Of a DNA stretch of 64,000 nt, positions 9,099 through 37,201 are shown one piece after another. The notes beneath the pieces are model-generated. The model ran no database searches. It was not told the DNA's origin and was given only the letters and a program-made list of their open reading frames with translations. The stretch covers positions 96,039 through 160,038 of the forward strand of contig JANQPI010000020.1 in NCBI GenBank assembly GCA_028289585.1, given 5' to 3'. The position numbers and the translations under genes are program-made. How positions within the stretch are numbered: position 1 is the first letter of the stretch; every line of letters starts with the position of its first letter. Source of the DNA: Candidatus Zixiibacteriota bacterium. GTDB taxonomy: Bacteria; Zixibacteria; MSB-5A5; GN15; FEB-12.

Positions 9099-9106
9099 AA
9101 AACGTT

Positions 9107-10240
9107 CTAGCCCGCCGTTACCGCCGGGACTCCCTCCTGTTGTAGTGTCGTATAGACGTCGGCCACAATGTTCAGGGCCTCATTGGTTTCTTCCACGGTT
9201 CCCGTGTTGATTCGCACAGCTTCCGGTAAACCGAATGGTTTGACATGACGGAGAATCAATCCTCGGTCAAGACAGCCCATAGTGAACGCATAAGCGAACG
9301 CTTCGGACTCCAACACCAGGAGAATGAAATTCGCCGCACTCGGCACCTGGCGCATCCCGAGCTCGTCGAAGCGCTGGCGCATGATATCAAGCATCCGGTT
9401 GTTCAGTTCAACCGTGCGACTGACAAAATCGTGATCGTCGAGTGCGGCAATCGCTGCTACCTGAGCCGGTAATGACGGTTCAAACGGCAGTTTGACCTTG
9501 TACATTTCCCGAATGATTTGCGCATCGGCAATCGCGTAGCCAACCCGCAGCCCGGCCAGACCGTAATCTTTCGACAGCGTCCGCGTGACAATGAGATTGT
9601 CGTAGTTGAAATCCAGACCATTCGGATAGTCATCGAGATGAACCGAGTAGTTGTAGTACGCCTCATCGAGAACGACATAGACGTCCGACGGTACTTGTTC
9701 CATGAACGCGGCTAGGTCAGCTGTCCGGACATACGTTCCCGTCGGATTGTTGGCGTTTGCGATATACACGAGCCGAGTCTGTGGTGTAATCGCTTCCGCA
9801 ATTCTACTCAGATCGTACCCGTAGTCGGTCAGCGGAACGGTCACGAGCTTTCGGCCGTGCTTTCGCACATTGACATACATGCCAATGAACGTTCCCTCGG
9901 CGGTAACGACCGAATCATCCGGACCGACCAACGCCTTGACCATGTATGAGAGCAGTGCATCGGTACCAGCACCGCAGATAATCTGATCAGCCGGGCGTCC
10001 ATGAACGGTCGACAGCTTCTGAATCAGATCATGAGCGGCCGGATCGACATAGCGCCAGACTCCGTCGAGCGCATCACGTGCAGCAGCAATCGCCGCTGGT
10101 GAGGCGCCGAGAGGATTCTCATTCGACGCCAACTTGATGATGCGCGTCAGCCCCTTCTCGCGAGCCAACTCCTCGACCGGCTTGCCGGCAATATACGGAC
10201 GCAACGCCTGGATATGCTCGGGGATGCGGAATTCGGTCAT
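9107..10240 (-). CDS. class I/II PLP-dependent aminotransferase (HisC/aromatic aminotransferase family), probable tyrosine aminotransferase
   Basis: 377 aa; PLP-lysine region ...TLSKDYGLAGLRVGY...; operon context with hmgA/hppD. Confidence 0.85.
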   Translation of the reverse strand: MTEFRIPEHIQALRPYIAGKPVEELAREKGLTRIIKLASNENPLGASPAAIAAARDALDGVWRYVDPAAHDLIQKLSTVHGRPADQIICGAGTDALLSYMVKALVGPDDSVVTAEGTFIGMYVNVRKHGRKLVTVPLTDYGYDLSRIAEAITPQTRLVYIANANNPTGTYVRTADLAAFMEQVPSDVYVVLDEAYYNYSVHLDDYPNGLDFNYDNLIVTRTLSKDYGLAGLRVGYAIADAQIIREMYKVKLPFEPSLPAQVAAIAALDDHDFVSRTVELNNRMLDIMRQRFDELGMRQVPSAANFILLVLESEAFAYAFTMGCLDRGLILRHVKPFGLPEAVRINTGTVEETNEALNIVADVYTTLQQEGVPAVTAG

Positions 10241-10301
10241 TGCAATCGTACCCTAACTCTATCCACCGCAACACATACCGGCCCCGCCGGTTCCACCGAC
10301 C

Positions 10302-11468
10302 CTACTCGAGCCATGAGTGAGCGTAATCCCGATCGAGCGTCTTCTGGGCGTTGGTTGTCGGCAAAAGCGGCTGGTACGTATCAATCATGATCGCGTACTC
10401 CTCGGTCTTCTCCTTGCCGACCGAATCTTCGGTCTTGCCCGGTTGCGGACCGTGGGGCATCCCTCCCGGATGCAACGTTATCGATCCGTTCTTCACACCC
10501 TTACGCGACATGAAGTCACCGTCGACGTAGTACAGTACCTCATCCGAATCGATGTTCGAGTGGAAATACGGTGCCGGAATTGCGCCGGGATAGAAATCGT
10601 ACAGACGCGGGACGAAGTTGCAGAGTATGAACTGACCCGTTTTGAAACAGAGATGTACCGGCGGCGGGAGATGAATCCGACCGACTTTCGGATGGTAGCT
10701 CTTGATGTTAAACGCAAACGGATAGAGGAAGCCATCCCAGCCAACGACACCGAACGGATGATGTGGCATGATATGTTCGAAGAAACGCTCACCCGCCTTG
10801 AGAATGACGACAAAGTCACCAGCCTCATCCGACGGTTCCAGATACTCCGGCGCCTTGAAATCGCGCTCGGCATACGGCGCGTCCTCAGTCATCTGACCGT
10901 ATTCATTACGGTAGTTGCGGGGAATTTCGTAGGCGGTCGATGATTCGCAGATCATCAGTTTGTTGTTCGCAGTGTAGTCGTCGAACTTGATCTGATACGT
11001 CACCGCTCGTGGCACGATAATCTGGTCGCCCGGCTCGAACCGAATCTTGCCGAACTCCGAAAGCATCTCCCCCTCGCCGTGGTGGATGAAAACGTACTCC
11101 GCACCGTAGGCGTTGCGGAAGAATTCGTCGGTGTCCTTGTTCACGTGTGCGGTGTAGATCTTGCAGTGATCGTTGTAGAGGAAGAGATTCCGCGACCGAA
11201 TGAAATCCCCCGGCGTCTGCAGGTCATCGGTGAAGAAATGATGATATAACACCGGTGCTTCCGGCCAGGAGACATCCTGAGTCATTTCCGGAAGGTGCCG
11301 CACGGATTTGACCGCGGTTGGCAAGTTGTAGTGATACTTGTTCGAATAGACACCCGAGAAACCCTTCGACGAAAACAACTCCTCGCGATAGAGCGACTTG
11401 CCGTCTTTCTTGAAGAACGTTGTGTGTTTGACGCGGGGAATATCCCCGACACTATGGTAAAATGGCAT
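10302..11468 (-). CDS. hmgA: homogentisate 1,2-dioxygenase
   Basis: 388 aa, typical HGD length and sequence pattern (cupin fold); follows hppD. Confidence 0.9.
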   Translation of the reverse strand: MPFYHSVGDIPRVKHTTFFKKDGKSLYREELFSSKGFSGVYSNKYHYNLPTAVKSVRHLPEMTQDVSWPEAPVLYHHFFTDDLQTPGDFIRSRNLFLYNDHCKIYTAHVNKDTDEFFRNAYGAEYVFIHHGEGEMLSEFGKIRFEPGDQIIVPRAVTYQIKFDDYTANNKLMICESSTAYEIPRNYRNEYGQMTEDAPYAERDFKAPEYLEPSDEAGDFVVILKAGERFFEHIMPHHPFGVVGWDGFLYPFAFNIKSYHPKVGRIHLPPPVHLCFKTGQFILCNFVPRLYDFYPGAIPAPYFHSNIDSDEVLYYVDGDFMSRKGVKNGSITLHPGGMPHGPQPGKTEDSVGKEKTEEYAIMIDTYQPLLPTTNAQKTLDRDYAHSWLE

Positions 11469-11547
11469 CGTTGCCTCGCATACTCAGTTGTGAATTCACT
11501 CTCACTTCCCGTCGGCTGGTAACCAAAAGGAGGGGACGACGTCCCCC

Positions 11548-12714
11548 CTAGCAGGGAGGCATGATTTCCGTTGGATCGCGATCGAGATTGCCGCGCAGTT
11601 TCTGATCGAGTTCGATCGATTCGAACAGCGACTGGAAGTTCCCCTTGCCGAAGCCCTGGGAGTTTCCGTGGCGCTGAATGAACTCGAAGAAGAACGTCGG
11701 CCGGTCACAAATCGGCTTGGTAAAGAGCTGTAACAGATAACCGTCGGACTCCTTGTCGCACAGAATGCCGAGCCGCTGGAGGTCATCGATGTTTTCGTTG
11801 ATCTGCAACTCGCCTGCCTGCTCACGTTCGCGCAACTTGTCGTAGTAGGTGTCCGGGATAGCGAGGAACTCACAGCCGTTCTTACGGAGGGCATCGATCG
11901 TTGCAATGATATCGGCGGTCTGGATCGCGATATGCTGTACGCCAGAACCATAGTATTGCTCGATGTATTCTTCGATCTGGGATTTTTTGAGTCCCTCGAA
12001 CGGTTCGTTGATCGGGTTACGGATTTTGGAGTCTTTGGTGCGAACGACCTTGGAGAGCAACGCCGAGTACTGGGTGCCGATGTCGCCTGCCTTAAAGTCG
12101 ACAAACGTCTCCATGTCCATCGCCTTGTTGAAATAGCTCGCCCAGAGATTCATCTCATTCTCGCGGACGTTGCCGACAATATGGTCGATTCCGAGAATCC
12201 CCGTTTCGTGATGGTCGAGTTGAATACTCTGCACCGGGGCGCAGAAGTCGGGACCAAATATCCCCTTGTAGTGGTCGCGGTTGACATACACGAGTTCGGT
12301 GTCGTCGTACAGACGAATCGCGGCCTCGGTGATGTGTCCCTTTTCCGGATGCCCATCTTCTTCGATCCGTTCCGGGCGGCGTACCATGACGGCACCGTTC
12401 TGTGTCGCGTACGTGAATGCGGCGTCGACATCGTCGACCTCAACCGACCAGCGCTTGACACCGTCGCCATGACGTTGAATCCAGCCGAGCACATCGTAGC
12501 AGTGCGGCTGCAACGCGCCGGTGACGAGCAGTTTGAAATTGTTCTTCTGCAGGTAGTAGCTGCACTTGTCGCGCACTCCCGTTTCGGCGCCGCGGTAGCC
12601 GACAATCTCCATGCCGAGCGCTTTGGCGAACCAGTAGGCGGTCGTTTTCGCCGACCCGACATAGAACTCGACATAGTCATAGCCACGGATTCCCATGATT
12701 CCGCTATCCGACAT
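11548..12714 (-). CDS. hppD: 4-hydroxyphenylpyruvate dioxygenase
   Basis: 388 aa, two VOC/glyoxalase-like modules, conserved HPPD C-terminal region; RBS-like AGGAG upstream. Confidence 0.9.
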   Translation of the reverse strand: MSDSGIMGIRGYDYVEFYVGSAKTTAYWFAKALGMEIVGYRGAETGVRDKCSYYLQKNNFKLLVTGALQPHCYDVLGWIQRHGDGVKRWSVEVDDVDAAFTYATQNGAVMVRRPERIEEDGHPEKGHITEAAIRLYDDTELVYVNRDHYKGIFGPDFCAPVQSIQLDHHETGILGIDHIVGNVRENEMNLWASYFNKAMDMETFVDFKAGDIGTQYSALLSKVVRTKDSKIRNPINEPFEGLKKSQIEEYIEQYYGSGVQHIAIQTADIIATIDALRKNGCEFLAIPDTYYDKLREREQAGELQINENIDDLQRLGILCDKESDGYLLQLFTKPICDRPTFFFEFIQRHGNSQGFGKGNFQSLFESIELDQKLRGNLDRDPTEIMPPC

Positions 12715-15883: not shown

Positions 15884-16708
15884 CTACTGACAGGTGGGCA
15901 GTGGAGAAAACGTGATGAACAGATGGTCCTGCAGAGCAGTTAGATCCGACAACCCTACGATACCGTCGGGTGAACCGTCGCAGTTCGCTTCCGCCGGACA
16001 AATCAAGGGACTAAGAGAGATAAAAAGGTGATCGACCAACGCACTGAAGTCCGCTAAGGACACTATGTCGAGTGGGTCGCCATCAACATTGCCAACGTCC
16101 GCGACACAACAACTACCTTGATCTTGTACGTGTAGGGCACCTGCCCAGACCGGATACCAAAGCGTAGTCGGTGTCCCACCCGCTGCCGCATAAACAACAT
16201 TTGGGAAGAGAGCGTGGGATGTATCCATTACGAAGGTGTTTCCAGCCGTCCAATGCTCAACGGTAAAGTGGAATGTCACCAGCTCTTGAGACTGGGGAGC
16301 AGCGGTCAAACCCGGCAAACTAATTAGCTGACCGGCAAACATGCAATGCTTCAGACTGTTAGATGAATCGACGTTGTTATTGTACATCGATGTGAACAGA
16401 TAGAAATTGAATGCACTGTCAACTGCTACAGGAACAACGGAACTATCCAGTCTGACTCCATCCAGATTCCAAACAAACTGTGCAGCTGCCATCTTGAGAA
16501 ACGATGAGTCGAGCTTGTACATGAACGACACAGCGAAGCTGGAGTCACCAACACTCAGATTAAGTGGATCAGACAACCTGAGTTTCATCGAATCAGGAAC
16601 ACCCGGGTCTAGGATGTCAAAAGCCGGTGCACTCGGAGCCGACAACAACGCCGTGCAATACAAGACCAAAGCAAAGCAACGGACTCCCCGAAAAGAATTG
16701 CATTTCAT
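15884..16708 (-). CDS. secreted protein with signal peptide and C-terminal tandem dockerin-like (EF-hand-loop) module; probably co-transcribed with the upstream metalloprotease
   Basis: 274 aa; N-terminal hydrophobic signal; C-terminus ...CCVADVGNVDGDPLDIVSLADFSALVDHLFISLSPLICPAEANCDGSPDGIVGLSDLTALQDHLFITFSPLPTCQ; 47-bp gap to protease gene. Confidence 0.6.
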   Translation of the reverse strand: MKCNSFRGVRCFALVLYCTALLSAPSAPAFDILDPGVPDSMKLRLSDPLNLSVGDSSFAVSFMYKLDSSFLKMAAAQFVWNLDGVRLDSSVVPVAVDSAFNFYLFTSMYNNNVDSSNSLKHCMFAGQLISLPGLTAAPQSQELVTFHFTVEHWTAGNTFVMDTSHALFPNVVYAAAGGTPTTLWYPVWAGALHVQDQGSCCVADVGNVDGDPLDIVSLADFSALVDHLFISLSPLICPAEANCDGSPDGIVGLSDLTALQDHLFITFSPLPTCQ

Positions 16709-16755: not shown

Positions 16756-19700
16756 TCACGGACAGATCTCCAATAGACTGAAGCTGATATAGAGATGATC
16801 AATTATCGCTAATACGTCAGCCTGAGAAACGCCCGGCTCACAACTCCCTCCGACAGTTCGAAGGTTAGCACTCTCAGGGCAATGAATCGCAATAAAGTCA
16901 ATAAATAGATGATTGATGTATATGCTCAAGTCAGATTGAGTGACGTCGTTGTCACCGAATCCATATATATCACCCGCAGTTCGATCTGAAAAACGGCACG
17001 GACCGGCCTTACAGGTCAAGTGGCCATTCTCGGAAGCAACGTCAAACTTGCCGAGATTTGTTGACAAGTTCCAATCCTCTAGGAACTCAGACATACTATC
17101 CGGCTGTGTGATAACTAAGAACTGAAGTATGTCGGTAAGCGAGTGTTGAAGTGTATCCTTGATACCATCCGGATTCGGAGTAAAGACCCCGGTCCAGTTG
17201 CCGCTTTCAAAAGGACTATAATTGTCATCCTCGCCTGCGTCATAGAGATCCCAAATCAAGCAGCCCGCTGAAGCCTCAAACAAGCAATGATCCGCACATC
17301 CGGATTGACCAGAGAAATCGACACCATTCTCTAGTCTGTATTGACGACCCGTCTCAAGGTCAAGAACCGCGGCAAACGTATACTCATAGTTCCAGTTGTA
17401 GCCAAGGGAACCCAAGCCTGTACCAAGGGTATCGCGTAGAGCGCCTTGGAAGAACTCGGCGAATCCCTCGGACGAAGCCTTAACCGGGTCCGAATTCGAA
17501 GAGTCGCACCAAGAATGAGAGGAGATTAGACTTGTCCGGTCGTCAAAGAAACGGTAGTGGTCGTGAAAAGCGTGGGCATACTCGTGCAAAATAGCCTCTG
17601 GGTCCCGCAAATCGTATAGGTAGTCAACTTTCCAACTACTTATGCTAATGTGACCGTCGAGGTAGCCAGTCGTGTCAAAAGAACTTGTCGACATTGTTAC
17701 CCGAGGCGGTGGATCGATTCCGACTCGTTCGGTGAGTTGTTCAGCAGCGAAGCGTAGCACATCGAGAGCATAAAACACATCGGAATTGATCGAATCCGGA
17801 GGCAGGATGAAGTCGACAGTGTAGTTCCCTCCAGGTAAGTCCATTGACAGTACTGAATCTCGAAAGTACCCGTCGGAAAAATTGACCGATGTAACGGAGC
17901 AAACAGGCGTCACCGCAACGAGACGGATATAAGGATCGATCGCACCACTCCCGATTTCTCCATCTTCATTAGTGAATTCGAAAGTGAATTTACCCAGGGA
18001 ATCAGTAACCGTCGTGGCTATTAGGTCATCAGGATTTCCAAAAATAAAATCCTCGTCCCAGGCTTCCACGCGAGCTCCAATGATAGGTCGATCACCTTCG
18101 TTGTTTGGTCGTCTTCGATAATAGGTGGCAGTCCCACGTATAACGACCTTTCGGTTGTAGAACTGGTACTCTCGAGTGGCAGTATTATTCGTCTGGTCAG
18201 GCTCGCCAAAGCCACCAAGACTGTTCAGAATTACAACGATATTGCCAAGAAAACTCGCCTGTTCAATCGGTTTAAATTCGACATCTTGGAAAAAGAGTAG
18301 CTGATTAGTTTGCGGTTGAATCGATTCAACAAAAAGATATGTCGATTGGGATACCTGATTATTGACTTCTATCGAAAATGCTCCGGATTCACCCAGCCCG
18401 TCATTCCTTACGCCGATGCAAACGCGATTCGGCTCACCCATGTACAACGTGTCATCAACCAAGCAACCGAGATCTTGAGAGACCGAAAAGACGTCCGGTA
18501 GGAAGGGATCCTGGTAGAACTCTAGGTCAAAGTTTGGCTTCCCGCGAACTTCCAAGTCGTCAATATAGACTCCTAATTTGTCATTTCCATCGTCATAGCC
18601 CGAACGGAAAGTAAAAATTAGAAAGACAGAATCCGGTAGAGTATCTATAGGCGTAGAGCCTTGACGAAACGTCTTGAGCGGAAATGAAATCGACTGCCAA
18701 CCGTTTGACGTTCCTCCGTAGGTGAGGAATCCGTTGACTAGGCTATTAGTGTTAAGGGAATCTCGGGAGTGAGCATATTGTACTACAAAAAAATTGTTTG
18801 AGAAGACCTGTTCAAAATCAAACCAGCACTGGAAAATGCAGTTTGCACTACGGAAGCCAGATAAATCAATTCCGATAGTATCGGCAAGAGTCGCGATCAT
18901 CCCTGGCGGGTAGGCTGGCGCGGGGCTATCCGCCGTGTCACTTGCACCTGCACACCAAATCGACGGTACAAAAGCACTCCCATGATAAAAGCTCGCGCCC
19001 CAGTGGGCCACGCCGTTGCCGGGATCGGAGTCGTAGCTTTGCCATCTATCCGATAAACCAAAATTGAATTCATCCTTGAAAATGATCGAGTCACTCGTGT
19101 TCACTTCTCTTCGCGGAGAAGAATCGCTAGTCGTGTCCTGCTGCTCACCAGGGGCGGTGATTCGGGAGTTCACAAATTCAGCAAACCACATCAATAGCGA
19201 ATCAATCTGAGCCGCGGCTGTTGATGTCGCTGTCTTTGAAACATACGCCCAGTAGTGATCGGGTGCGTACGGTACGAGTGAGTCGACTCGATCTCGCACA
19301 GCAGCAACCACCTCAGGTGTGAAAATAGCCATTCTCCGCCGAGCGGTCTCGGGAGTTTGATCGGAGTGTGGTGTGTTCACTGAGGGGTCGCGGATAGGCT
19401 TGAGGTCGTTTGCTAATCTGACCGAGTCAATCATCTCGCTGACTCTGCGATTGTGCTCGAGAATCTCCTCAAGCGGAATACGACCTTGCATAGTATCGGA
19501 GGCCCAGTATTGGCTCGCCATTTCACGCAATCTCGCGTTCAGCGACCATCTCTCCAGAACTTCGACAACATTCTGGCCATTATTGAACGCATCATGTGGT
19601 TTATTGCTGACTGTCACTGAATCGACATAGTCTGCAATGTAAATATGAAAGAAATTGAATAATCCGTTACAGTAGTCGACACTGACAGGAAATGCGGTGT

Positions 19701-20052
19701 AGCGCTCAGGCGGATACTGCAATTCGACCTCAAACTCAATCTGCCGCTGCCCATTGAGATCCAACTCCAACTCATTGGGAACAGGACGTGGCATTTCTTG
19801 AGGGCTAGAAACCCCTATTCTCACAGTCGGACAGTTAAGGTACTCATCCCGGGGCATCGCCGTTACACGCACCCTAACAGGCTGTCCGCGGATAACCCCG
19901 CCGACAACTTCGAGACGAGTTTCGATTGAGACATTCGGCAGCTTGCGGGGCGTAGCATCGCTTTGTGATACGAGAATTATTAGCGAGAAAAGAACGAAAA
20001 TCGTAAGTCGCTGTGGAGCAATCATCACACACCCCCAGTTTGGATGACTCAT
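16756..20052 (-). CDS. large secreted zinc metalloprotease (HExxH: LHEYAHAFH) with N-terminal paralogous domain, central beta-rich domains and C-terminal dockerin-like module
   Basis: 1098 aa; signal-like N-terminus; HEYAH motif; C-terminal ...DNDVTQSDLSIYINHLFIDF...GVSQADVLAIIDHLYISFSLLEICP; low-GC composition. Confidence 0.7.
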   Translation of the reverse strand: MSHPNWGCVMIAPQRLTIFVLFSLIILVSQSDATPRKLPNVSIETRLEVVGGVIRGQPVRVRVTAMPRDEYLNCPTVRIGVSSPQEMPRPVPNELELDLNGQRQIEFEVELQYPPERYTAFPVSVDYCNGLFNFFHIYIADYVDSVTVSNKPHDAFNNGQNVVEVLERWSLNARLREMASQYWASDTMQGRIPLEEILEHNRRVSEMIDSVRLANDLKPIRDPSVNTPHSDQTPETARRRMAIFTPEVVAAVRDRVDSLVPYAPDHYWAYVSKTATSTAAAQIDSLLMWFAEFVNSRITAPGEQQDTTSDSSPRREVNTSDSIIFKDEFNFGLSDRWQSYDSDPGNGVAHWGASFYHGSAFVPSIWCAGASDTADSPAPAYPPGMIATLADTIGIDLSGFRSANCIFQCWFDFEQVFSNNFFVVQYAHSRDSLNTNSLVNGFLTYGGTSNGWQSISFPLKTFRQGSTPIDTLPDSVFLIFTFRSGYDDGNDKLGVYIDDLEVRGKPNFDLEFYQDPFLPDVFSVSQDLGCLVDDTLYMGEPNRVCIGVRNDGLGESGAFSIEVNNQVSQSTYLFVESIQPQTNQLLFFQDVEFKPIEQASFLGNIVVILNSLGGFGEPDQTNNTATREYQFYNRKVVIRGTATYYRRRPNNEGDRPIIGARVEAWDEDFIFGNPDDLIATTVTDSLGKFTFEFTNEDGEIGSGAIDPYIRLVAVTPVCSVTSVNFSDGYFRDSVLSMDLPGGNYTVDFILPPDSINSDVFYALDVLRFAAEQLTERVGIDPPPRVTMSTSSFDTTGYLDGHISISSWKVDYLYDLRDPEAILHEYAHAFHDHYRFFDDRTSLISSHSWCDSSNSDPVKASSEGFAEFFQGALRDTLGTGLGSLGYNWNYEYTFAAVLDLETGRQYRLENGVDFSGQSGCADHCLFEASAGCLIWDLYDAGEDDNYSPFESGNWTGVFTPNPDGIKDTLQHSLTDILQFLVITQPDSMSEFLEDWNLSTNLGKFDVASENGHLTCKAGPCRFSDRTAGDIYGFGDNDVTQSDLSIYINHLFIDFIAIHCPESANLRTVGGSCEPGVSQADVLAIIDHLYISFSLLEICP

Positions 20053-20104
20053 ACTACCAATGACAGTATAGAGTATGACGTACCGCGCACGCAGTCACCA
20101 AACT
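20032..20104. repeat. 73-bp segment (5' UTR plus first 7 codons of the protease gene) near-identical to 21023-21094
   Basis: Exact match except a 1-bp indel; tandem duplication signature. Confidence 0.85.
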
Positions 20105-21053
20105 CGATTTCAGGAGTCTCCGGTTTCTTTCGATTTGATTCAACGTCTTTCTTCTGAAGATGCCGCGTCCTCACGTACTCTTCGAACCACTCCAAGAGCT
20201 CGTCGACTCGCTGTTTGGCCGATGCAGTCGCCGTCTTCGAAACATATGCCCAGTAATGATGTGGCGCATACGAAACCAATGAATCCACTCTAGATCGTAC
20301 TGCATCAACTTCCTCGGGATTTAGCAGGAACATTGCCTGTCTAACCGAACTCTGGCTGCTGTCGGACAGGCTAGTCTCCAAAGTCGTTGCGAAAATCGGG
20401 CCAAGCCCCATCAACGTTCGGATCGAGTCGATCTGTCTACGAACCTCATCGTTATGTTGGCCAATATCGTCTATCCGAAAGCTTGGACCGAGAGTATCTG
20501 GAGACAAGAAGCGGCTCTCTAACTGCTTCAGTTGCTGTTCGAGGCGCCGCCTTTCTAACGTCGCAGGAACACTCGTCCCGCTTCTAAAACCGATGTCGGG
20601 TACATCCGTGACAACTACAGAATCAACGTAGTCGACGATAAAAAACTCATAGAAATTGAGATATCGATCACAGAATTTGAAGCTGACCGAGTACGCCAAG
20701 TATAGCTCGGGGAGAAAGTTGACTTCGAACTCTACATCTATCCTCCCCGATGACTGCCGATCTACCTGCTGCTCGGTCGGACTCGGTTGGGGCATATTCC
20801 GAGCCACGTGCAAATCGACTAAGACCGTTTCGCAGGTGTCGAACTCGGGCCGAGGAATCGCGGTAACGCGTAGGCTAATTGGATGCCCTCGAACTATTTC
20901 GCCAACAACTTCTACATTGGCATCGATCGATACGTCGGGTAGAGCGCGGGACCGGGCATCGCTCTTTGAAACAGCGGTGAGGGTCAGTAAAAGAACAAAT
21001 GCCAAGACTCGGCATGAGTAGATCATCACACACCCCCAGTTTGGATGACTCAT
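20049..21053 (-). CDS. paralog of the N-terminal domain of the 1098-aa metalloprotease (stand-alone, about 334 aa), stop overlaps protease start (ATGA)
   Basis: Shares MSHPNWGCVMI start and similar following region (...LP[ND]VSI...VEVVG..RG.P...RVTA.PR... EFEV...); start chosen at the conserved MSHPNW methionine. Confidence 0.55.
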   Translation of the reverse strand: MSHPNWGCVMIYSCRVLAFVLLLTLTAVSKSDARSRALPDVSIDANVEVVGEIVRGHPISLRVTAIPRPEFDTCETVLVDLHVARNMPQPSPTEQQVDRQSSGRIDVEFEVNFLPELYLAYSVSFKFCDRYLNFYEFFIVDYVDSVVVTDVPDIGFRSGTSVPATLERRRLEQQLKQLESRFLSPDTLGPSFRIDDIGQHNDEVRRQIDSIRTLMGLGPIFATTLETSLSDSSQSSVRQAMFLLNPEEVDAVRSRVDSLVSYAPHHYWAYVSKTATASAKQRVDELLEWFEEYVRTRHLQKKDVESNRKKPETPEIEFGDCVRGTSYSILSLVV

Positions 21054-21094
21054 ACTACCAATGACAGTATAGAGTATGACGTACCGCGCACGCA
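21023..21094. repeat. second copy of the 73-bp 5' UTR/start duplication
   Basis: Direct sequence comparison. Confidence 0.85.
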
Positions 21095-21184
21095 ATCCGT
21101 CCAAAGCCGATTTCAGCTCCCTCGATTGAACCTACCATTTGCTCTTAATGTACTATATACTAATCAATCGGGCGGCTGATCGCC
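21094..21184. repeat. 91-bp direct repeat copy B; a further degenerate copy lies at about 20098-20130 inside the 3' end of the paralog ORF
   Basis: About 95% identity with 15421-15511. Confidence 0.75.
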
Positions 21185-21223: not shown

Positions 21224-23011
21224 ATGCCGACAGTTGCCTCTACCGAAACGCCGGTTGACTTTACCAGCAACCCGCAGGTCCGCGCCCTCCCCAACTACCT
21301 TCGACAGTTCATTGTCGAACAGAACTACGACGCCTACCACCCGGTCGACCACGCCGTCTGGCGTTACATCATGCGTCAGAACTGCCATTTCCTGCGCGAG
21401 AACGCCCACAAAGTCTATTTCAAGGGGCTGCTCGAAACGGGGATCGACCTCGACAAGATTCCGTCGATCGCCGAAATGAATGACATCCTGGGCAAGATCG
21501 GCTGGGGCGCGGTGGCCGTCGACGGGTTCATCCCCCCGGCGGCGTTCATGGAGTACCAGGCGTACAAAGTGCTCGTCATCGCCGCCGACATGCGGCAACT
21601 GCATCATATCGACTACACCCCCGCGCCGGATATTGTCCACGAGGCGGCCGGGCATGCGCCGATCATTGTCGACGAGGAATACTCGAACTACCTGCAACGC
21701 TTCGGCGAAATCGGTGCCCTGGCGATGTACTCGAAGCGAGATTACGAGCTCTACGAGGCGATTCGCAAGCTGTCGATTCTCAAAGAAACGCCTGGCGCCG
21801 ATGAAAACGAAATCGACGCCACAGAAAAGCAGGTCAAATGGCTACAGGAAAATCTCGGGGAACCGTCGGAAATCGCCCGCCTGCAACGTCTGCACTGGTG
21901 GACAGTCGAATACGGCCTGATCGGCACGCTCGACAAGGCCAAGATCTACGGTGCGGGATTGCTCTCATCGATCGGCGAGTCGGTCAAATGCCTCGAACCG
22001 AATGTCAAGAAGTTGCCGTACACGCTCGCTGCGGCTGACTACGCCTTCGATATCACCGAGATGCAACCGCAACTTTTTGTCACCCCCGACTTCACACATC
22101 TGCACAACGTTCTCGAAGAATTCGCCGACACAATGGCACTCCGTCGCGGCGGCGCCTACGGCGTCAAGATGGCGATCGACACCGAGGCAACCAACACCGC
22201 CGAATACTCAAGCGGTTTACAGGTGTCAGGAATTTTCAGCGATCTAAAGACCGATGCCAATGGCGACGTGATCTTTATCAAGACATCGGGTGCGACCACC
22301 CTCGCCCATCAGCGGACGTGTCTCGACGGTCACGGTCCCGAGTATCATGCCGACGGCTTCTCCTCGCCGGTTGGTAAGTTTAAGAACGTCCCGCGCGATC
22401 CGGGTGATCTCGACGATTCCGCGCTCGAAATGATGGGCCTGCGTTTCGGTCAGCCGGGCAAACTCGAATTCGAGTCCGGCATCACGGTAGAGGGAACGCT
22501 CGAACGGGCCGTCCGCAAAGACGACAAGCTCCTCTTACTCGTCTGGTCGAACTGTACGGTCACCTACGGCGGCGAAACACTGTTCCGTCCGGAATGGGGA
22601 ACCTACGACATGGCGGTCGGTGCGACAATTACGTCGGTCTTCTGCGGTGCTGCTGACAAAGATGCTCACCACGAAATCGCTCCGGTCTCGCGCACGCGAA
22701 CGATCAAAGTCCACTACACCGATAAAGAGCGCGCTCGCCAGAAGCTCTACGGTGAGGTGCGGAAGATACGCGACGGCCAGGGGTCGACCGAGGCCCTTCC
22801 GGATATCTGGACCAAGGTCACCACCGAGCACCCCGACGACTGGTTGCTGTCGACCGAGATTCTAGAACTCGTCGAGCATCTCAAAATCTATCCAGATCTC
22901 AACAAACGGATTCGCGCCTATCTCGCCACCAAGGCAGAGGAGGATGCGATCACGCGCAAGTTGATTGAGGACGGTCTCAGTCTCTCGTTCCGCATCACTG
23001 CCCGCGACTAG
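21224..23011 (+). CDS. phhA: long-form aromatic amino acid hydroxylase (phenylalanine 4-monooxygenase) with a roughly 300-aa C-terminal extension of unknown function
   Basis: Iron-binding/pterin region PDIVHEAAGHAPIIVDEEYSNYLQRFGEIG matches the PAH/TH/TPH catalytic signature; total 595 aa. Confidence 0.8.
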   Translation: MPTVASTETPVDFTSNPQVRALPNYLRQFIVEQNYDAYHPVDHAVWRYIMRQNCHFLRENAHKVYFKGLLETGIDLDKIPSIAEMNDILGKIGWGAVAVDGFIPPAAFMEYQAYKVLVIAADMRQLHHIDYTPAPDIVHEAAGHAPIIVDEEYSNYLQRFGEIGALAMYSKRDYELYEAIRKLSILKETPGADENEIDATEKQVKWLQENLGEPSEIARLQRLHWWTVEYGLIGTLDKAKIYGAGLLSSIGESVKCLEPNVKKLPYTLAAADYAFDITEMQPQLFVTPDFTHLHNVLEEFADTMALRRGGAYGVKMAIDTEATNTAEYSSGLQVSGIFSDLKTDANGDVIFIKTSGATTLAHQRTCLDGHGPEYHADGFSSPVGKFKNVPRDPGDLDDSALEMMGLRFGQPGKLEFESGITVEGTLERAVRKDDKLLLLVWSNCTVTYGGETLFRPEWGTYDMAVGATITSVFCGAADKDAHHEIAPVSRTRTIKVHYTDKERARQKLYGEVRKIRDGQGSTEALPDIWTKVTTEHPDDWLLSTEILELVEHLKIYPDLNKRIRAYLATKAEEDAITRKLIEDGLSLSFRITARD

Positions 23012-30052: not shown

Positions 30053-31440
30053 TCAGACAGGAGAATCGATCAACTGTTTCTCAAACGTAACCGCCGACAA
30101 CATCGCATCGACATAGAAATAGTGCTCAAGCTTGAACGGTATGAAGCGGAGCGATACATCGTCCGGTCGAAACCAGCGATCACACACCTCGGCGTTAGGG
30201 TCACGACCAATACGGGTGCGAAAGATTACGACATCGGCCAGTGACAGTGCGCTCGGCAGCGTCAACGTAACGGGCGCCAGACGATACCCGGCCAACGACG
30301 AAGCATCGGCATCGACCCAATCAAATCGCCCCCCCGCCACGGTCATGCGGTGCGCCAGCTTGTACACCTGCTCGAAACGCTCCACGCGAAAGGCGGGGAT
30401 AAGCAATTCCCTCGGCGGAGTTGTTGACGTGAACAGGCGCTGCAACTCCTGCTCCTGACTCCGCCCCAGATCGAAAGCCCAGAATGGTACGAGGAGTGAT
30501 CCCGGGGCGCTTCCGGCCGCCAACGATGCGTTAACTGCAATCGCCTGCTCGGCAATGTCGACACGTCCGCAGTTGGCGCAGCTATAGAAGTAGGAGTGAT
30601 TGTCCGGAAGGTCGACGCCGCAGTTGTCGCAGCGATGAAACGAAAGTCCGAGTGAACCGAACGTCATCGCTATCTCCGATGGAGTCTCGGTCGACGACAC
30701 GTCGTTCGCAATCGGCTCCTTCAGCAACCGTCCGGAAACGCCATCCTGAACAAACCGCCGGACGCCATTACTGTCGTAGGTTTCGATCACTACGTACGGG
30801 AAATAGACCAGATCGACCTCAGGATGGAACCATTCAGTGCGGTTCTGCCCAAAATCGCCGTGCGACATCATCCCCATCACCCCGATACTCCGGGCGGCGG
30901 CCGCTTCGGCTTCCTCCGATGAAACGACAACAGGCAAGAGATCGTAATCGCCCTCAACGCGGTCGCTGGTAAGCGGCGCAATCGGGAGAATTGCGGAACG
31001 CATTCCGATCGACGCTGGTACTCCCGCCAGCGGAGCCGCGGCTGCTACAGTCGTCTCATGCGGCGAGAGCCAGATCGACGTCGTATCGACATCGTACTCG
31101 ACGTCGGGTTGCTCACTGGAGACAACCATCGCTGTCCGTTGCTCTCGCGTGTTGCGGAGCTTCAGAACGACTGCCTTAATTCGCCAGTAGGGGTAGAGCA
31201 GATGCTTGATCTGAAGCGACGACGATGTCAACCGCTCTCCTGCCTCCTTGAGAGCGCGGTCGAGTTTGAAGCGGAGTTCGCGACGCGAGAGCCTGGTGGT
31301 GACAAAGAATGCCGGCGGTTGATCGGGACGGACAATACGTAGCACCGAACCGCAGGAGGTGCAGACGGCGAGAAAGAAATCGTCGTCAAGCTCGATGTCG
31401 GCACCACACCCGGGGCAACCGACATCGATCGTAAACCCAC
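30053..31440 (-). CDS. tandem zinc-ribbon protein (two CxxC...CxxC ribbons, two similar halves), YdjG/YdjH-like partner of SPFH protein; start uncertain (annotated ATG overlaps upstream gene by 197 nt, likely a non-ATG start near 31440)
   Basis: CPGCGADI...CTSCGSV and CDNCGVD...CANCGRV motifs; co-directional and contiguous with the SPFH gene. Confidence 0.5.
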
Positions 31441-31445
31441 TTCGT

Positions 31446-32555
31446 TTACTGGCCGGCTGACTCGGTGCCACCCGCAACCGCCTGTCCACATTCGGCACAG
31501 AATTTCGCGTTCGGAATGAGCTCAGCCGAACACTTGGTGCATGACTCAATGGCCGGGACACCCGTGCCGCAGTTCGGGCAGAACTTCGGACGTCCCACTG
31601 AGGCGAGATCAAAGCCACACGACATACAGAACGCGGCGGCATTCATGCGGCCACCACCCGAAGGTCCAAACGGACGCCCGCCCCCTCCAGTTGCCGACGC
31701 GCCGGGGTCGCTTGAGCCGGGCGGGTGGCCGGATGCCAGCATACCGGGCATCAGCATTCCTACGCCCGCCCCCAAACCGAGACCGGCCCCGGCGGCCTGA
31801 GCCGAACCTGGCTGACCGAAGCCCTTCGCCACCTGGAATTGCATGAACTTACCGAGATCACCCACAGCACCCATGCCGGAGCGATTGTCGATCATCTTGG
31901 CGACTTCCTCCGGCGGCGTGATCGACGTGATATAGAAATCGACCAGTGTCAGTCCATACTTGGCAAACTCATCAGTGACGAGCTGCTTGAACTCGGCTGA
32001 CAGCTCGGTGTATTGGGCCGGAAGATCAAACACCGTTTCCAGCTTTTCGCCGAGCATATCATTCATACGAGCGATGATGACATCACGGAGGTAGGACTGG
32101 ATGTCTGCCGTCGTAAACCGAGCCTCGCGGCCAACGATCTGATCAAGGAACGTGACCGGTTCGGAAATCTTGATCGTGAACGCGCCGTGCGCGCGAAGGC
32201 GAACCAGACCGAGCTGCTTGTCGCGGAACGCGACCGGGTGCGTGGTTCCCCACTTCAGATCAGTAAAGACCTTGAGATTAACGAAGTACGCCTCGGCCCG
32301 GAATGGTGAATTAAAGCCGAACGGAAACGCAGCAAGACGCGTCAAGATCGGTATATTGGCGGTCACCAGCGTATGCCGACCGGGACCAAACTGATCGGCT
32401 GCCTGACCGGACTTGTAGAAGATGGCGAGCTGGCTGTCCCGAACGATTAACTGGGCACCCAGCTTAAAATCCGCCGATCCGTTTTGTGGAATCCGGTGAA
32501 TCATCTCGGTCCCCGAGGGGTCCATCCATTCAATGACTTCGATTAAGAGCGACAT
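31446..32555 (-). CDS. SPFH/band-7-like protein (YdjI-like) with Gly-rich linker and C-terminal double zinc ribbon
   Basis: 369 aa; SPFH-like core, ...[13 protein letters not shown]..., C-terminal CMSCG...CPNCG...CTKCS...CAECG. Confidence 0.65.
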
Positions 32556-32781: not shown

Positions 32782-34443
32782 ATGAGACGCAAGACGTTTG
32801 CAATTTCTATCTGCCTCCTGGTCGGTTTCGGCCTGCCGCTTTCGGCCGCTCCCGGAGATACCCTTCTGCCCGATCTGATCGTTAATCCGAACGATCTCTA
32901 CGATAATGAAATCGTCCGGGCCGATGTCTTCGGCGGCCTCTATCTGCGCATATCTAACGGTGTCGCCAACGTCGGTGACGGCCCCCTGATTATCCGGACG
33001 ATCGACGGCTCCGAAACCGATTCGACCCAGGCCGTGGAGCAGCTTATGCAGGTCGAGGGTGGACCGTTTGCAACCAACGAGGCCGGCACGTTCATCTTCC
33101 ATCCGACCCACGGACATATTCACTTCGAAGGCTGGGCCCTGTTCCAGTTGCGGGAAGTCCTGGCGGACGATGGCGTCGGCGACCCGATTGCAATCGGCAA
33201 CAAGATCTCCTTCTGCATTGTCGACGAGAGCGTGTTCGACAACACGCTGCCTAACTTCGATCCGGCCGGACCATTCATTTTGTGCGGCGTACCACCAGGC
33301 GAGACCGTCGTGCAGGGATTGTCGGTTGGCTGGATCGACACCTACGACAAATCGCTCCCCGATCAATTCATTGACATCACAACGGTTCCCGACGGTGAGT
33401 ACTGGCTGGAGTCGATCGCAGATCCGGACAATCGGATCATCGAACGCGACGAAACGAACAATGTCGCGCGCATCAAGATTACACTGGGTTCAGGTGGCGA
33501 TAGCTATGAACCAAACGATGCGATCGTTGTCGTTAACGATCGTGAGTCGGGAGTGCCGAATTCTCCCAACATCGGACCGGCCGCTCCGGAGCTGACAATC
33601 ACCAATCTCTCACTACACGTGTCCGGTGATCGTGATTACTTCAAGGTCTACTTCCCGGGTGAAGGAGCAATGGGCGACTACGTTCGACTTACATTCCCGG
33701 TTGGTCCCGATGTGCCCGTCCTGCAACTACTCGACTCGGCATACCAACTGGTCGGGCAGGCAACCACTGGCTTTGGGGAACGAGTAATCAGCCTCGACGG
33801 TCTTGCCGCCGGTTGGCATTACATCAAAGTGATCGGTCAGAGTGGCTCGCTTTTGGAAGACTACACCCTGGAGGTGAATCCGCCGGCTAACAGCCCCCCC
33901 ACGCTGACACTCACCACGCCGGTTCAGGCAGATACGATCCTACACGGCTTCGACACCTATCCGGTGGAATGGAACTACTCCGATCCGGAGGGTAACTCCG
34001 CCTGGGTAACGTTCTACGTTAACGATCAGCCGGTTCTCGACGGTACCGAATTCATGCTTCCCCAGACTCGTTACACGCCGGCCGAATTCGGTCAAGCGAC
34101 AATCAACTCGGCCTATCTGGACTCAACAACCTACTACGTCTATGGTGAAATCACCGACGGTGGAAGCGTTTCGGGCTCGTGGGCAACGGGAACACTGACT
34201 CTGATCCCTCCGCCCTGTTGCTTTGCCCTCACTGGTAACGTTGATTGCGATCCGAGCGGTGAAACGGGGCTGGCCGACCTCAGTACCCTGATCGACCACC
34301 TTTTCATCACGTTCGCTCCCCTCTGTTGCGCCGGCGAGGCTGATATGGTCATCAGCAACGGGGACGAGGTCGGCTTGCAAGAACTATCTGCACTGATCAA
34401 TCACCTCTTCATCTCCTTCGAGCCGCTTCCTTCCTGCCGCTAA
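32782..34443 (+). CDS. secreted multidomain protein: putative lysyl-oxidase-like copper domain (HPTHGHIHFEGW), PPC (pre-peptidase C-terminal) domain, and C-terminal tandem dockerin-like module
   Basis: Signal peptide MRRKTFAISICLLVGFGLPLSAAPG; PPC signature YEPNDA...DRDYFKV...GWHYIKV...YTLEV; C-terminus CCFALTGNVDCDPSGETGLADLSTLIDHLFITFAPLCCAGEADMVISNGDEVGLQELSALINHLFISFEPLPSCR. Confidence 0.6.
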   Translation: MRRKTFAISICLLVGFGLPLSAAPGDTLLPDLIVNPNDLYDNEIVRADVFGGLYLRISNGVANVGDGPLIIRTIDGSETDSTQAVEQLMQVEGGPFATNEAGTFIFHPTHGHIHFEGWALFQLREVLADDGVGDPIAIGNKISFCIVDESVFDNTLPNFDPAGPFILCGVPPGETVVQGLSVGWIDTYDKSLPDQFIDITTVPDGEYWLESIADPDNRIIERDETNNVARIKITLGSGGDSYEPNDAIVVVNDRESGVPNSPNIGPAAPELTITNLSLHVSGDRDYFKVYFPGEGAMGDYVRLTFPVGPDVPVLQLLDSAYQLVGQATTGFGERVISLDGLAAGWHYIKVIGQSGSLLEDYTLEVNPPANSPPTLTLTTPVQADTILHGFDTYPVEWNYSDPEGNSAWVTFYVNDQPVLDGTEFMLPQTRYTPAEFGQATINSAYLDSTTYYVYGEITDGGSVSGSWATGTLTLIPPPCCFALTGNVDCDPSGETGLADLSTLIDHLFITFAPLCCAGEADMVISNGDEVGLQELSALINHLFISFEPLPSCR

Positions 34444-34555: not shown

Positions 34556-35182
34556 ATGGGGATTCCCGAACCACTGACCAAGCGCTCCTCAATAGCTGAG
34601 CCGCTACCTGACTTGACAGAACACGAACTCACCAGCCTAGCCGGACACTACGAACAGATTCTTCGTGGCGTTGGCGAAGATGTCGATCGCGAGGGGCTCG
34701 TCCGTACCCCGATGCGAGCGGCCAAGGCGTTTAGTCACCTTACCCGTGGTTACCGACAGAGCCTTGAGGAAATCGTCAACGGTGCGCTCTTCGAATCCGA
34801 CACCGATGAAATCGTTCTCGTCAAGAATATCGAACTCTACTCGCTGTGTGAGCATCACCTCCTGCCGTTCATCGGCAAAGCCCATGTGGCCTATCTGCCG
34901 GGCGGGAAGATTATCGGACTCTCCAAAGTCGCTCGCATCGTGGACATGTTCGCCCGCCGACTCCAGGTTCAGGAACGGCTGACCAAAGAAATTGCCGATG
35001 CCCTACAGTCGGTTACCGACGCAGCTGGCGTAGGCGTTGTCGTTGAGGCCAAACACCTCTGCATGATGGCGCGAGGTGTAGAAAAGCAAAACTCGGTGAT
35101 GAAGACATCGTGCGTCCTGGGTGAGTTTCGCTCCGACCCGGCAACACGACGCGAATTCTTCAGCTTGATCTACCGGGACTAG
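34556..35182 (+). CDS. folE: GTP cyclohydrolase I
   Basis: 208 aa; conserved ...CEHHLLPF...[23 protein letters not shown]... Confidence 0.9.
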
Positions 35183-35384
35183 TTTCAGGCGACGCGGGAT
35201 TGTCTCGCGCTAACCACGTCGCCTCAATCGCGGCACACGAGCAACTTCCAGTTCGGTTCCGCCAGAGCGCCTGATGTTAGCAACTGTCTCTCGCAAATTC
35301 GAGTTATGCACGTCCCGCCGCCTCGGGGCTTCCGACTGGGCTCCGGAACGGCGGAGTCGTTTATATGGACCCGCGGGCCTGGCC

Positions 35385-36488
35385 ATGCACGGTACCGGTT
35401 TCAACCCGCAGGTCTATGTTGTTTTAGCCGGAGATGTTGATCCCGAGACCGGGATGATGGTCGACCTCGGCGAGGTCAAAGAGCGGATTCGCGAAGTGCT
35501 CTATCCGGCGTTCGATCATCGCCATCTCAATGCTGACACCGCACCGTTCAACCGGGTCCCCCCCACGGGTGAGATGGTCGGACTCGAAATCATGCAGCTA
35601 CTGACACCGCTCTTTGTGCGCGACCACGTCCGTATTGCCGCGGTTCATGTGCGCGAGGATGAATACTCGGGAGTTACCGTCTACGAATCCGGCAAAGTTG
35701 ACCGTCATACGACCATCGTCTTTTGTGCAGCACGCGTCACGCGATCACCGCATCTCTCGGAGGAGCAGAACCGTGAATTGTTTGGTATCGCAGCCGATCC
35801 AGCCGGCCACGGCCACACCTATCATCTGCACACCGTCGTGAGTGATCCGGTCGATGCAGCGACTGGTGTTATCATTCCTTATGTCGATCTCTGCCGAGCG
35901 CTGGAGGATGTTCGCTCGGAGCTCGATCACCGCCATCTCAATGTACAGGTCGACGGACTTGCAGAACAGCCGATAACAACGGAGAATCTGGCCCGCTACT
36001 GTTTGCGACGTCTCGCCGCTCACCTTCCCATCGATCGAGTGAAGCTCTACGAATTCCCGCATTTCTACGCCGAGCATACACTCAGCAATCTAACGAGCCT
36101 GGGAGTCCATGCGTCGTTCGACGCGATGCATCGTCTGCATTCCCCTCATCTGTCCGATCGCAAGAACAAGAAGACCTACGGCAAGTGTAACAACCCGAAC
36201 GGACACGGCCACACGTATCGCACCGAATTCAGTGTGTCGGCTCCGTTCAATGAGCAGACCGGGACGGTTGCCGTCCTTGATGAGCTTACGGAGAGTGTGG
36301 AGTCGGTCGTGGCTGGATATCACCACAAACATCTCGACCGGGAACTCGACGATTTTCACGATCGGCCGTCGACGGGTGAGAACATCATCGCCGCCCTCTG
36401 GCAACGTGCCGAGCCGGGGTTGCCGGGGAACCTGCAGCGCCTTAGACTCTGGGAAACACCGAACAATCGCTTCGCCATCCGGCGCTGA
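35385..36488 (+). CDS. 6-pyruvoyl-tetrahydropterin synthase family protein with three tandem PTPS/QueD-like modules
   Basis: Three DH(R/K)HLN motifs and two zinc-site HGHTY triads (PAGHGHTYHLHT, NPNGHGHTYRTE); start chosen at in-frame ATG 35385 (ORF opens at 35274). Confidence 0.7.
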   Translation: MHGTGFNPQVYVVLAGDVDPETGMMVDLGEVKERIREVLYPAFDHRHLNADTAPFNRVPPTGEMVGLEIMQLLTPLFVRDHVRIAAVHVREDEYSGVTVYESGKVDRHTTIVFCAARVTRSPHLSEEQNRELFGIAADPAGHGHTYHLHTVVSDPVDAATGVIIPYVDLCRALEDVRSELDHRHLNVQVDGLAEQPITTENLARYCLRRLAAHLPIDRVKLYEFPHFYAEHTLSNLTSLGVHASFDAMHRLHSPHLSDRKNKKTYGKCNNPNGHGHTYRTEFSVSAPFNEQTGTVAVLDELTESVESVVAGYHHKHLDRELDDFHDRPSTGENIIAALWQRAEPGLPGNLQRLRLWETPNNRFAIRR

Positions 36489-36508
36489 CATCGACGAGGG
36501 GTTCACAC

Positions 36509-37201
36509 ATGCCGCGATATCTGATCACCGGCGCAAGTAAGGGAATTGGTCGGGCCACGGCCCGTCGACTCGCCAACAAATCGATCGACCTCATTCTTCA
36601 CGGCCGCGATGAAACGGCCCTTGATGCTGTGCGAATCGATTGTGAAGGCCGAGGAGCGAGTGTAGCGACAGTCGCCGCCGACTTGAGCACGGTCGACGGC
36701 GCCCAGGCGGTTATTGATGCCATCGGCTCACAGTCGCTCGATCTATTGTGCAACAACGCTGGCTACGCGGTCGCCAAGTCCCTTGATGAGATTACCGTTG
36801 ATGACTGGAATCGACAGTTTGCCGTTAATGTCACCGCTCCCTTTCTCCTGATTAAAGCACTGGCACCGGCAATGCCGGCCGGTTCGATGATCGTCAACAT
36901 GTTGTCGGTCGCTGCCAAGAACGGCTTTCCCAATTGGTCAGCGTACTGCATGAGCAAGTTCGCGCTTGAGGGGTTTTCGCAGTCGATCCGACACGAACTG
37001 CGTGAACGCGGGATCAAGATTCTCACCATCTACCCTGCCGCCACGGATACGGAAATTTGGGAGACCTCGGTCGGCCGACCCGGTCCGGAGCAGATGCTGC
37101 CTCCCGAAGAAGTCGCCGAACAGATAGCGTTCGCTCTCGCCCGACCAAACGACGTCATGGTCCAGTTTGGCCCGATCAGCCATCTGATGGGGTATCTATA
37201 G
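36509..37201 (+). CDS. short-chain dehydrogenase/reductase (SDR); by context a sepiapterin-reductase-like final step of tetrahydrobiopterin synthesis
   Basis: TGASKGIGRATA Rossmann motif, YxxxK active site region (YCMSK); immediately downstream of folE and PTPS. Confidence 0.75.
   Translation: MPRYLITGASKGIGRATARRLANKSIDLILHGRDETALDAVRIDCEGRGASVATVAADLSTVDGAQAVIDAIGSQSLDLLCNNAGYAVAKSLDEITVDDWNRQFAVNVTAPFLLIKALAPAMPAGSMIVNMLSVAAKNGFPNWSAYCMSKFALEGFSQSIRHELRERGIKILTIYPAATDTEIWETSVGRPGPEQMLPPEEVAEQIAFALARPNDVMVQFGPISHLMGYL

Follow-up and report, generated by a model that had tools for sequence, protein, structure and literature searches.

A divergent dockerin with conserved cysteines on exported Zixibacteria proteins, most likely a docking domain

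Three genes in the window and their C-terminal modules

The DNA studied here, hereafter called the window, is a stretch of 64,000 nucleotides from a Candidatus Zixiibacteriota contig (JANQPI010000020.1). Translation and alignment of its ORFs revealed that the same C-terminal module of about 80 residues is present on exactly three of them (Table 1). A first-pass annotation had proposed from the sequence that these three C-termini are shared, and the proposal held when we scanned all ORFs of the window with an HMM of the family trained on 229 modules, none of them from the window: the HMM found exactly these ORFs, and the next-best ORF reached only E = 1.1. The ORFs as delimited by the annotation are real, but two of them lie on the minus strand, so that the modules of carriers 2 and 3 are found at the low-coordinate ends of their genes. 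In a six-frame translation of the window, the motif [DN]HL[FY]I occurs six times, each time inside one of the three modules. Compared with copy 1, the other two copies are 49% and 33% identical at the protein level, and the DNA identity among the copies is only 49–57%, indicating that the conservation is at the protein level and does not reflect a recent DNA repeat.

Table 1. Positions in the window of the module carriers, the module copies and the two repeats of copy 1.
Feature	Coordinates	Strand	Description	Basis
Carrier 1	32782..34443	+	553 aa: signal-like N-terminus, lysyl-oxidase-like domain, CARDB-like stretch, module
Carrier 2	15884..16708	-	274 aa: signal-like N-terminus, ~170-aa domain of no assigned fold, module
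Carrier 3	16756..20052	-	1098 aa: HEYAH (HExxH) motif, transthyretin-like/CarboxypepD_reg-like stretch, module
Module copy 1	34201..34440	+	residues 474-553 of 553-aa carrier 1	family HMM, E = 1e-27
Module copy 2	15887..16126	-	residues 195-274 of 274-aa carrier 2	family HMM, E = 4e-32; alignment
Module copy 3	16759..17013	-	residues 1014-1098 of 1098-aa carrier 3	family HMM, E = 1.6e-13; alignment
Copy 1, repeat 1	34234..34314	+	Ca-loop-like G-N-V-D-C-D-P-S-G-E-T-G-L-A-D, then helix L-S-T-L-I-D-H-L-F-I-T-F	alignment to family profile and 4fl4 dockerin
Copy 1, repeat 2	34339..34419	+	loop A-D-M-V-I-S-N-G-D-E-V-G-L-Q-E, then helix L-S-A-L-I-N-H-L-F-I-S-F

Apart from the module, the carriers are very different proteins. 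In carrier 1, residues 102–234 match the Pfam family Lysyl_oxidase (PF01186, E = 2.3e-14), and a CARDB match was obtained at E = 1.1e-4. Carrier 2, whose gene adjoins that of carrier 3, gave no Pfam or NCBIfam match at all. The sole homologue of its N-terminal domain comprises residues 565–718 of a relative, P0021, where the domain is flanked by two dockerin-like modules. Carrier 3 is a putative HExxH metalloprotease, and its TTR-52 match (E = 2e-4) lies under the Pfam cut-off. As judged by eye, all three carriers begin with a hydrophobic, signal-like stretch.

The three copies differ in how much of the module they have kept. Copy 1 contains six cysteines (C479, C480, C489, C515, C516 and C552) and terminates in S-C-R-stop. 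Its first repeat retains the Ca-ligand columns 13, 15, 17 and 26, with Gly instead of Asp in column 23, and the loop of its second repeat is degenerate, having ligand-type residues in columns 48 (D), 52 (S) and 61 (E) only. Copy 2 has cysteines in columns 6, 7, 43, 49 and 79 and terminates in T-C-Q-stop. Copy 3 is the most divergent: it contains a single N-terminal Cys (P-C-R-F in place of the CC pair), it has lost most of the Ca-ligand residues, it carries a 3-residue insert in loop 2, and it terminates in I-C-P-stop. The residue pattern that the first-pass annotation had written for the module describes copies 1 and 2 well but fits copy 3 poorly, because the CC pair and most of the Ca-ligand residues are absent there. 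Relative to the family consensus, the window copies have His for Tyr in D-H-L-F-I, and their columns 23 and 58, which are Asp in about 90% of the family, are occupied by Gly, Ser or Thr.

Relationship of the module to dockerins

The module is a divergent type-I-like dockerin, even though Pfam and NCBIfam are blind to the window copies. These copies produced no match in either library at E<=10, in keeping with the earlier impression of an unrecognised signature, and thus fall short of the gathering score of Pfam Dockerin_1 (22.9 bits). Profile comparison was more sensitive. A profile of 49 module sequences matched the Clostridium thermocellum Cel9D dockerin in the PDB (4fl4_A, E = 2.5e-5) as well as CelD (E = 5.5e-4, both repeats covered), and 10 of its 13 PDB matches at E<=1 were dockerin modules or dockerin-bearing cellulosomal proteins. 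An earlier profile of nine sequences also had Clostridium dockerins as its top PDB matches (E = 0.022). With regard to individual sequences, weak Dockerin_1 matches were seen for 18 of 40 isolated family modules (best E = 3.2e-4), and N-terminal or internal copies in multi-module relatives exceeded the gathering score (46.7 bits in P0136, 33.9 in P0017 and 29.3 in P0012). The same copies are also matched by the module HMM.

The predicted structure points in the same direction. The AF2 model of the module had a pLDDT of 86.8, and when it was used as a query in Foldseek, the top 24 matches were all dockerins, with TM values up to 0.83; the predicted fold is superimposable on those of solved dockerins. 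The likeness to type-I dockerins noticed by the first-pass annotation is supported by both profile and model. Helices are placed by the model at positions 24–36 and 59–71, with a short linker helix at 44–47, and the sequence repeats internally with an offset of 35 residues (N13/N48, D26/D61). As modelled, the module consists of two tandem F-hand units, each a Ca-binding-type loop followed by a helix, that are packed as in type-I dockerins.

Matches to NCBIfam Omp28_seleno were also obtained for 18 of the 40 modules, but membership of that family was rejected, the scores being 13–17 bits against a cut-off of 200. The matches are confined to the last 60 of the 377 model positions, which represent another dockerin-like tail.

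Conservation was computed over 230 unique modules. The Ca-ligand columns are well kept in repeat 1 (N13 97%, D15 91%, D17 85%, D23 91%, D26 99%) and in repeat 2 (N48 87%, D50 90%, D58 87%, D61 100%). According to the alignments, each Ca loop comprises 14 residues against the canonical 12, owing to a 2-residue insertion that is usually Pro-x. Both repeats keep the helix motif D-L-T/S-A-L-I-D-Y-L, in thousands of secreted proteins that are unrelated outside the module, and behind each helix comes a hydrophobic, proline-rich tail, L-F-I-S-F-T-P-P/L, that is likewise conserved. Four cysteines are conserved (C6 89%, C7 87%, C43 94% and C79 94%). A further pair, C16 and C42, is generally present or absent together (both in 101 modules, neither in 120, mixed in 9; Fisher 8e-54, a value that ignores phylogeny), so that four or six cysteines are the dominant patterns. 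The protein ends one residue past the last Cys, with Q, L or P as that residue, in 211 of 221 C-terminal modules. This C-x-COOH end is not a dockerin feature and counts against the dockerin reading, as do the failure of the window copies to match Dockerin_1 and their loss of Asp in columns 23 and 58.

In dockerins generally, a non-covalent clasp between the N- and C-terminus stabilises the cohesin-binding form, and it joins residues just ahead of the first loop to the C-terminus (PMC3821032). The N-terminal copies in the relatives have a Cys exactly at clasp position -1 and another at the module end, which suggests that the clasp may be closed by a disulfide. The four or six cysteines would then probably be paired in two or three disulfides, one of which would make the N-to-C clasp covalent. 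One of C6 and C7 would be expected to bond with C79 and the other with C43, and C16 with C42. Since the window copies have lost some of the Ca ligands, they may rely on disulfides more than on calcium. It should be underlined that the calcium dependence of the module, like the formation and the pairing of the disulfides, is inferred.

Among the closest known systems is the type-I dockerin, PF00404 (Cel9D/CelD, 4FL4 and 1CLC; DocCel5 of A. cellulolyticus, 5NRK). Like type-I dockerins, the module is mostly C-terminal on signal-peptide proteins and present in multiple copies per genome, and its two ends meet, as they do in the clasp of dockerins (PMC3821032). In contrast to type-I dockerins, it has the longer Ca loops with their Pro-x insertion, the LFISFTPP tails, the four or six conserved cysteines and the strict C-x-COOH end; it has I/L-S/G and I-D-Y at the cohesin-contact residues, where type-I dockerins have S-T and K-R; and its host is an uncultured, presumably diderm phylum. 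Ruminococcus flavefaciens FD-1 offers another parallel, with 222 dockerins, including 156 C-terminal, 32 internal and 19 N-terminal ones, and with one group in which the loop is extended from 12 to 15 aa (PMC2930009). The two sets have in common a very large number of paralogues, distinct subgroup signatures, some loops of more than 12 residues, clustered carrier genes that include peptidases and many unknown domains, and the order C-terminal, internal, N-terminal in frequency. They differ in that R. flavefaciens has documented scaffoldins (ScaA/B/C/E), Gram-positive cell-wall anchoring and no conserved cysteines.

Among the models in NCBIfam, the GC-type dockerin (NF041540) is likewise C-terminal and is treated by NCBI as an anchoring domain. 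It is a lineage-specific variant. Its cut-off of 29 bits was not reached by any of the 40 family modules, the best score being 15 bits, with matches in two of them, and the window copies gave no match to this model.

By its longer loops, its cysteines, its tail and the rule for its terminus, the module stands out as a distinct dockerin subfamily. This subfamily is described by no Pfam or NCBIfam model and in none of the literature that we found; our literature search returned nothing on a Zixibacteria dockerin, cohesin or type IX secretion system (T9SS), nor on the GC-type dockerin.

Distribution of the family and the search for a receptor

A word-indexed search with the three window copies returned seven relatives, of which one bore the name Zixibacteria. 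The first-pass annotation had suggested an HMM search for further carriers, and such a search, run exhaustively over 1.84 billion cluster representatives, yielded 5,799 clusters (50% identity) at E<=1e-3 and 2,257 at E<=1e-10. The hits with a source name are all Zixibacteria. Named relatives overall are almost all from this phylum, and single genomes contain dozens of copies, in agreement with the suggestion that the module is lineage-specific. In a scan of genomes, one per species, 230 stretches were confirmed, and the best 80 came almost all from MAGs labelled Zixibacteria. Among these best 80 of 230, at least 28 module loci belong to a single closed chromosome of 3.44 Mb (Zixibacteria, CP070824.1). 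Seventy-eight loci of about 6 kb contain 105 module-bearing ORFs, showing that carriers are often neighbours, like the pair in the window. When the neighbouring genes across the 78 related loci were clustered, the only recurrent ones were carrier paralogues and an antisense-ORF artefact.

In 143 of the 156 best representatives (~92%), no more than one residue separates the module from the end of the protein. About 30 of the 156 bear extra copies, often located right after the signal peptide or internally. P0008 has internal modules together with a genuine Por_Secre_tail at its own terminus, which shows the module to be distinct from the T9SS signal. The carriers among the relatives are diverse and typical of surface or extracellular proteins (TSP_3, PKD, beta-propeller, FG-GAP, beta-helix and peptidase domains), and glycoside hydrolases were not enriched in the sample scanned.

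Pfam scans of the larger ORFs in the window detected no cohesin, and neither did phmmer with a cohesin query that had first been verified against 1ANU/1OHZ; the first-pass annotation had seen no cohesin-like partner either. The ~170-aa N-terminal domain of carrier 2 was considered as the missing cohesin, an idea that found no support. Its hhalign probability against the verified CipA cohesin-2 was 0.07, and no cohesin appeared among its PDB profile matches. A single-sequence AF2 model of this domain, with a pLDDT of 30.8, was unusable.

Beyond the window, the receptor search covered about 80 related loci with short genome flanks, and phmmer gave one lead. Locus L049, which comes from a MAG rich in modules, contains a gene oriented divergently to a carrier gene. 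The protein that it encodes has a sub-threshold match to Pfam Cohesin (E = 0.006, 17.2 bits, cut-off 24.1), and all seven of its PDB sequence matches are cohesins. The protein also bears a canonical-looking dockerin and a genuine T9SS Por_Secre_tail. A metagenome scan with this candidate returned two near-identical loci (L080/L081). When the candidate and this metagenome homologue were compared with CipA cohesin-2, hhalign reported a probability of 81% and E = 1.2e-5, over 44 columns only. Genes for the Cys-containing dockerin were absent near both metagenome loci. These observations suggest that T9SS-anchored cohesin-like receptors may exist in the lineage.

A probable docking function and its alternatives

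We consider it most likely, with a probability of roughly 60%, that the module is a cysteine-stapled divergent dockerin on Sec-exported Zixibacteria proteins that docks them to a common receptor. The module is appended to exported proteins of very different kinds and would serve as a common plug for its carriers. In the window, carrier 1 is lysyl-oxidase-like, carrier 2 is small and of no assigned fold, and carrier 3 is the putative HExxH metalloprotease. Docking would be non-covalent, to a shared receptor that may be cohesin-like or of another type and that would sit on the cell surface or belong to an extracellular assembly. Both the docking function and the nature of the receptor are what we infer here; a helix motif shared by unrelated proteins, in combination with a dockerin fold, makes docking to a common receptor the best-supported mechanism.

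A more far-reaching form of docking is conceivable, although we regard it as unlikely: a phylum-wide, non-cellulolytic, cellulosome-like display, in which each genome would encode dozens of secreted enzymes and adhesins whose disulfide-clasped dockerins plug into cohesin-like receptors. The T9SS would anchor these receptors to the outer membrane, and the C-x-COOH end would take part in recognition or locking.

A different view is that the dockerin fold has been co-opted for sorting or secretion, as a C-terminal tag recognised by a dedicated export or attachment machinery, possibly with cleavage or modification at the terminal Cys-x, in the way that T9SS CTDs, PEP-CTERM and LPXTG signals are handled. 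The strong preference for the very C-terminus among the top 156 representatives and the almost invariant C-x-COOH end favour this view, and dozens of lineage-restricted copies per genome on diverse surface-type proteins are the usual footprint of such signals. The T9SS CTD in particular (PF18962 Por_Secre_tail / TIGR04183) is C-terminal, about 75–80 aa long, found on dozens of diverse secreted proteins of the FCB group, and present in the same lineage as the module. However, it is a beta-sandwich, whereas the module is predicted to be alpha-helical with Ca loops, and the T9SS CTD models did not match the module although the same scans detected genuine Por_Secre_tails in relatives. LPXTG, PEP-CTERM and GlyGly-CTERM signals have a short motif followed by a hydrophobic TM helix and a basic tail; the module end (...F-x-P-L-P-x-C-x) has neither a hydrophobic helix nor a basic cluster, and it matched no NCBIfam sorting signal. 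The first-pass annotation was thus right in setting the module apart from T9SS CTD, PEP-CTERM and LPXTG. The copies that follow a signal peptide or lie internally also speak against a sorting signal, as does P0008, where a real T9SS CTD takes the terminus. Furthermore, the module is an autonomously folding Ca-loop domain with helix residues conserved as in binding dockerins, true dockerins show an equal positional distribution (PMC2930009), and no candidate processing enzyme was found. A sorting role is accordingly rather improbable, and a docking domain fits the evidence somewhat better than a cleaved sorting signal does.

Alternatively, the module might have no cohesin-type partner and act as a structural cap stabilised by Ca2+ or disulfides, or as a tag for self-association or for binding glycans or minerals. 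One weak case apart, no cohesin was seen in the window or in the ~80 related loci, and many proteins carry two to five modules, which could self-associate. Peer et al. reportedly described, in 2009, dockerin-like modules outside cellulosomes, often without cohesins. On the other hand, the exposed helix motif D-L-T-A-L-I-D-Y-L is conserved beyond the needs of fold stability, suggesting one common ligand, and the partner search in related genomes covered short flanks only. We find this partner-less role doubtful. As for a chance or compositional likeness, or a recent DNA duplication without functional meaning, the short length of the module is all that speaks for it. It is refuted by the distance between the three carriers and the next ORF in the independent HMM scan, by the thousands of family members, by protein motifs kept at such low DNA identity, and by the confident structure model.

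The family comprises about 5,800 clusters and, in a closed Zixibacteria genome, takes up roughly 1% of the genes; it represents a conserved domain that is missed by standard libraries. Its identity as a dockerin variant annotates tails that are otherwise hypothetical, and flags many proteins as extracellular or surface-displayed. Since dockerin-like modules outside cellulosomes are already known, current understanding is not overturned. The disulfide-clasped copies, partly depleted of Ca ligands, could interest those who engineer cohesin–dockerin pairs. Docking to a common receptor leads to the testable prediction that an uncultured, environmentally widespread phylum builds its exoproteome on such a receptor, and the cellulosome-like display outlined above, if true, would be the first such surface-display system in a diderm candidate phylum.

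Carrier proteins of the window and their neighbours

The 1098-aa carrier of the cysteine-rich dockerin variant (Cys-dockerin) contains a HEYAH (HExxH) motif, which suggests from sequence that it is a putative zinc metalloprotease. No Pfam peptidase model matched this carrier, its sole Pfam match being a weak transthyretin-like stretch. The start of its gene is overlapped by the stop of a 351-aa ORF without any dockerin-like module. When read from Met18, this ORF shares its first 11 residues (MSHPNWGCVMI) with the carrier and is 44% identical to carrier residues 1–297 (blastp, E = 4.8e-85); it is a tandem paralogue of the carrier's N-terminal region.

The carriers are surrounded by genes that serve the breakdown of aromatic amino acids and the production of pterin cofactors, and the lysyl-oxidase-like carrier (553 aa) is directly upstream of the GTP cyclohydrolase I gene. 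Elsewhere in the window, the ORF overlapping and downstream of the SPFH/Band-7 gene gave more zinc-ribbon matches, and its listed start is probably too far upstream.

Coordinates of the features discussed
Feature	Position	Strand	Remark
351-aa ORF	20049-21104	-	adjoins 1098-aa carrier
1098-aa carrier	16756-20052	-	HEYAH
Module end, 553-aa carrier	34435-34443	+	C-R
Module end, 274-aa carrier	15884-15892	-	C-Q
Module end, 1098-aa carrier	16756-16764	-	C-P
Carrier neighbours	8064-12714, 21224-23011, 34556-37201		FAA hydrolase, aminotransferase, homogentisate dioxygenase-like and HPPD-like glyoxalase-fold proteins; biopterin-dependent hydroxylase; GTP cyclohydrolase I, PTPS, SDR
SPFH/Band-7 protein (C-terminal zinc ribbons) and overlapping downstream ORF	30053-31642, 31446-32555	-	
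L049 cohesin-like protein	1-1995	reverse	CAYVWS010000089.1
L080/L081 cohesin-like proteins			Ga0272444_10045103, Ga0272443_10026247

The C-terminal end across the family

Among the relatives from the family search (P0008–P0235), the stop falls exactly one residue past the last cysteine in 211 of the 221 C-terminal modules, giving C-Q, C-L or C-P ends, a precision that is explained by no dockerin property. Modules 60–81% identical to the Zixibacteria consensus also occur on L001, L012, L022 and the CAZNAI01/CAYVWS01 loci, which were submitted within MAGs labelled Aenigmatarchaeota, Sedimentisphaerales, Bifidobacterium and 'uncultured Ignavibacteriales'; these contigs are probably mis-binned or mislabelled.

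Possible adaptors and receptors

A small architecture of 317–345 aa recurs in P0010, P0015, P0018, P0020, P0023 and P0027, in which a signal peptide is followed by a canonical-loop dockerin (Cys at -1 and a second Cys at its own end), an unknown domain of about 150 aa and a C-terminal Cys-dockerin. Such proteins could be double-dockerin adaptors or cross-linkers. One protein family, found at loci L049, L080 and L081, carries a T9SS Por_Secre_tail (the C-terminal sorting domain of type IX secretion) in addition to a weak cohesin-like domain and a dockerin of canonical appearance. At L049 its gene adjoins, divergently, a gene bearing the Cys-dockerin module, and its product is a possible receptor for the Cys-dockerin.
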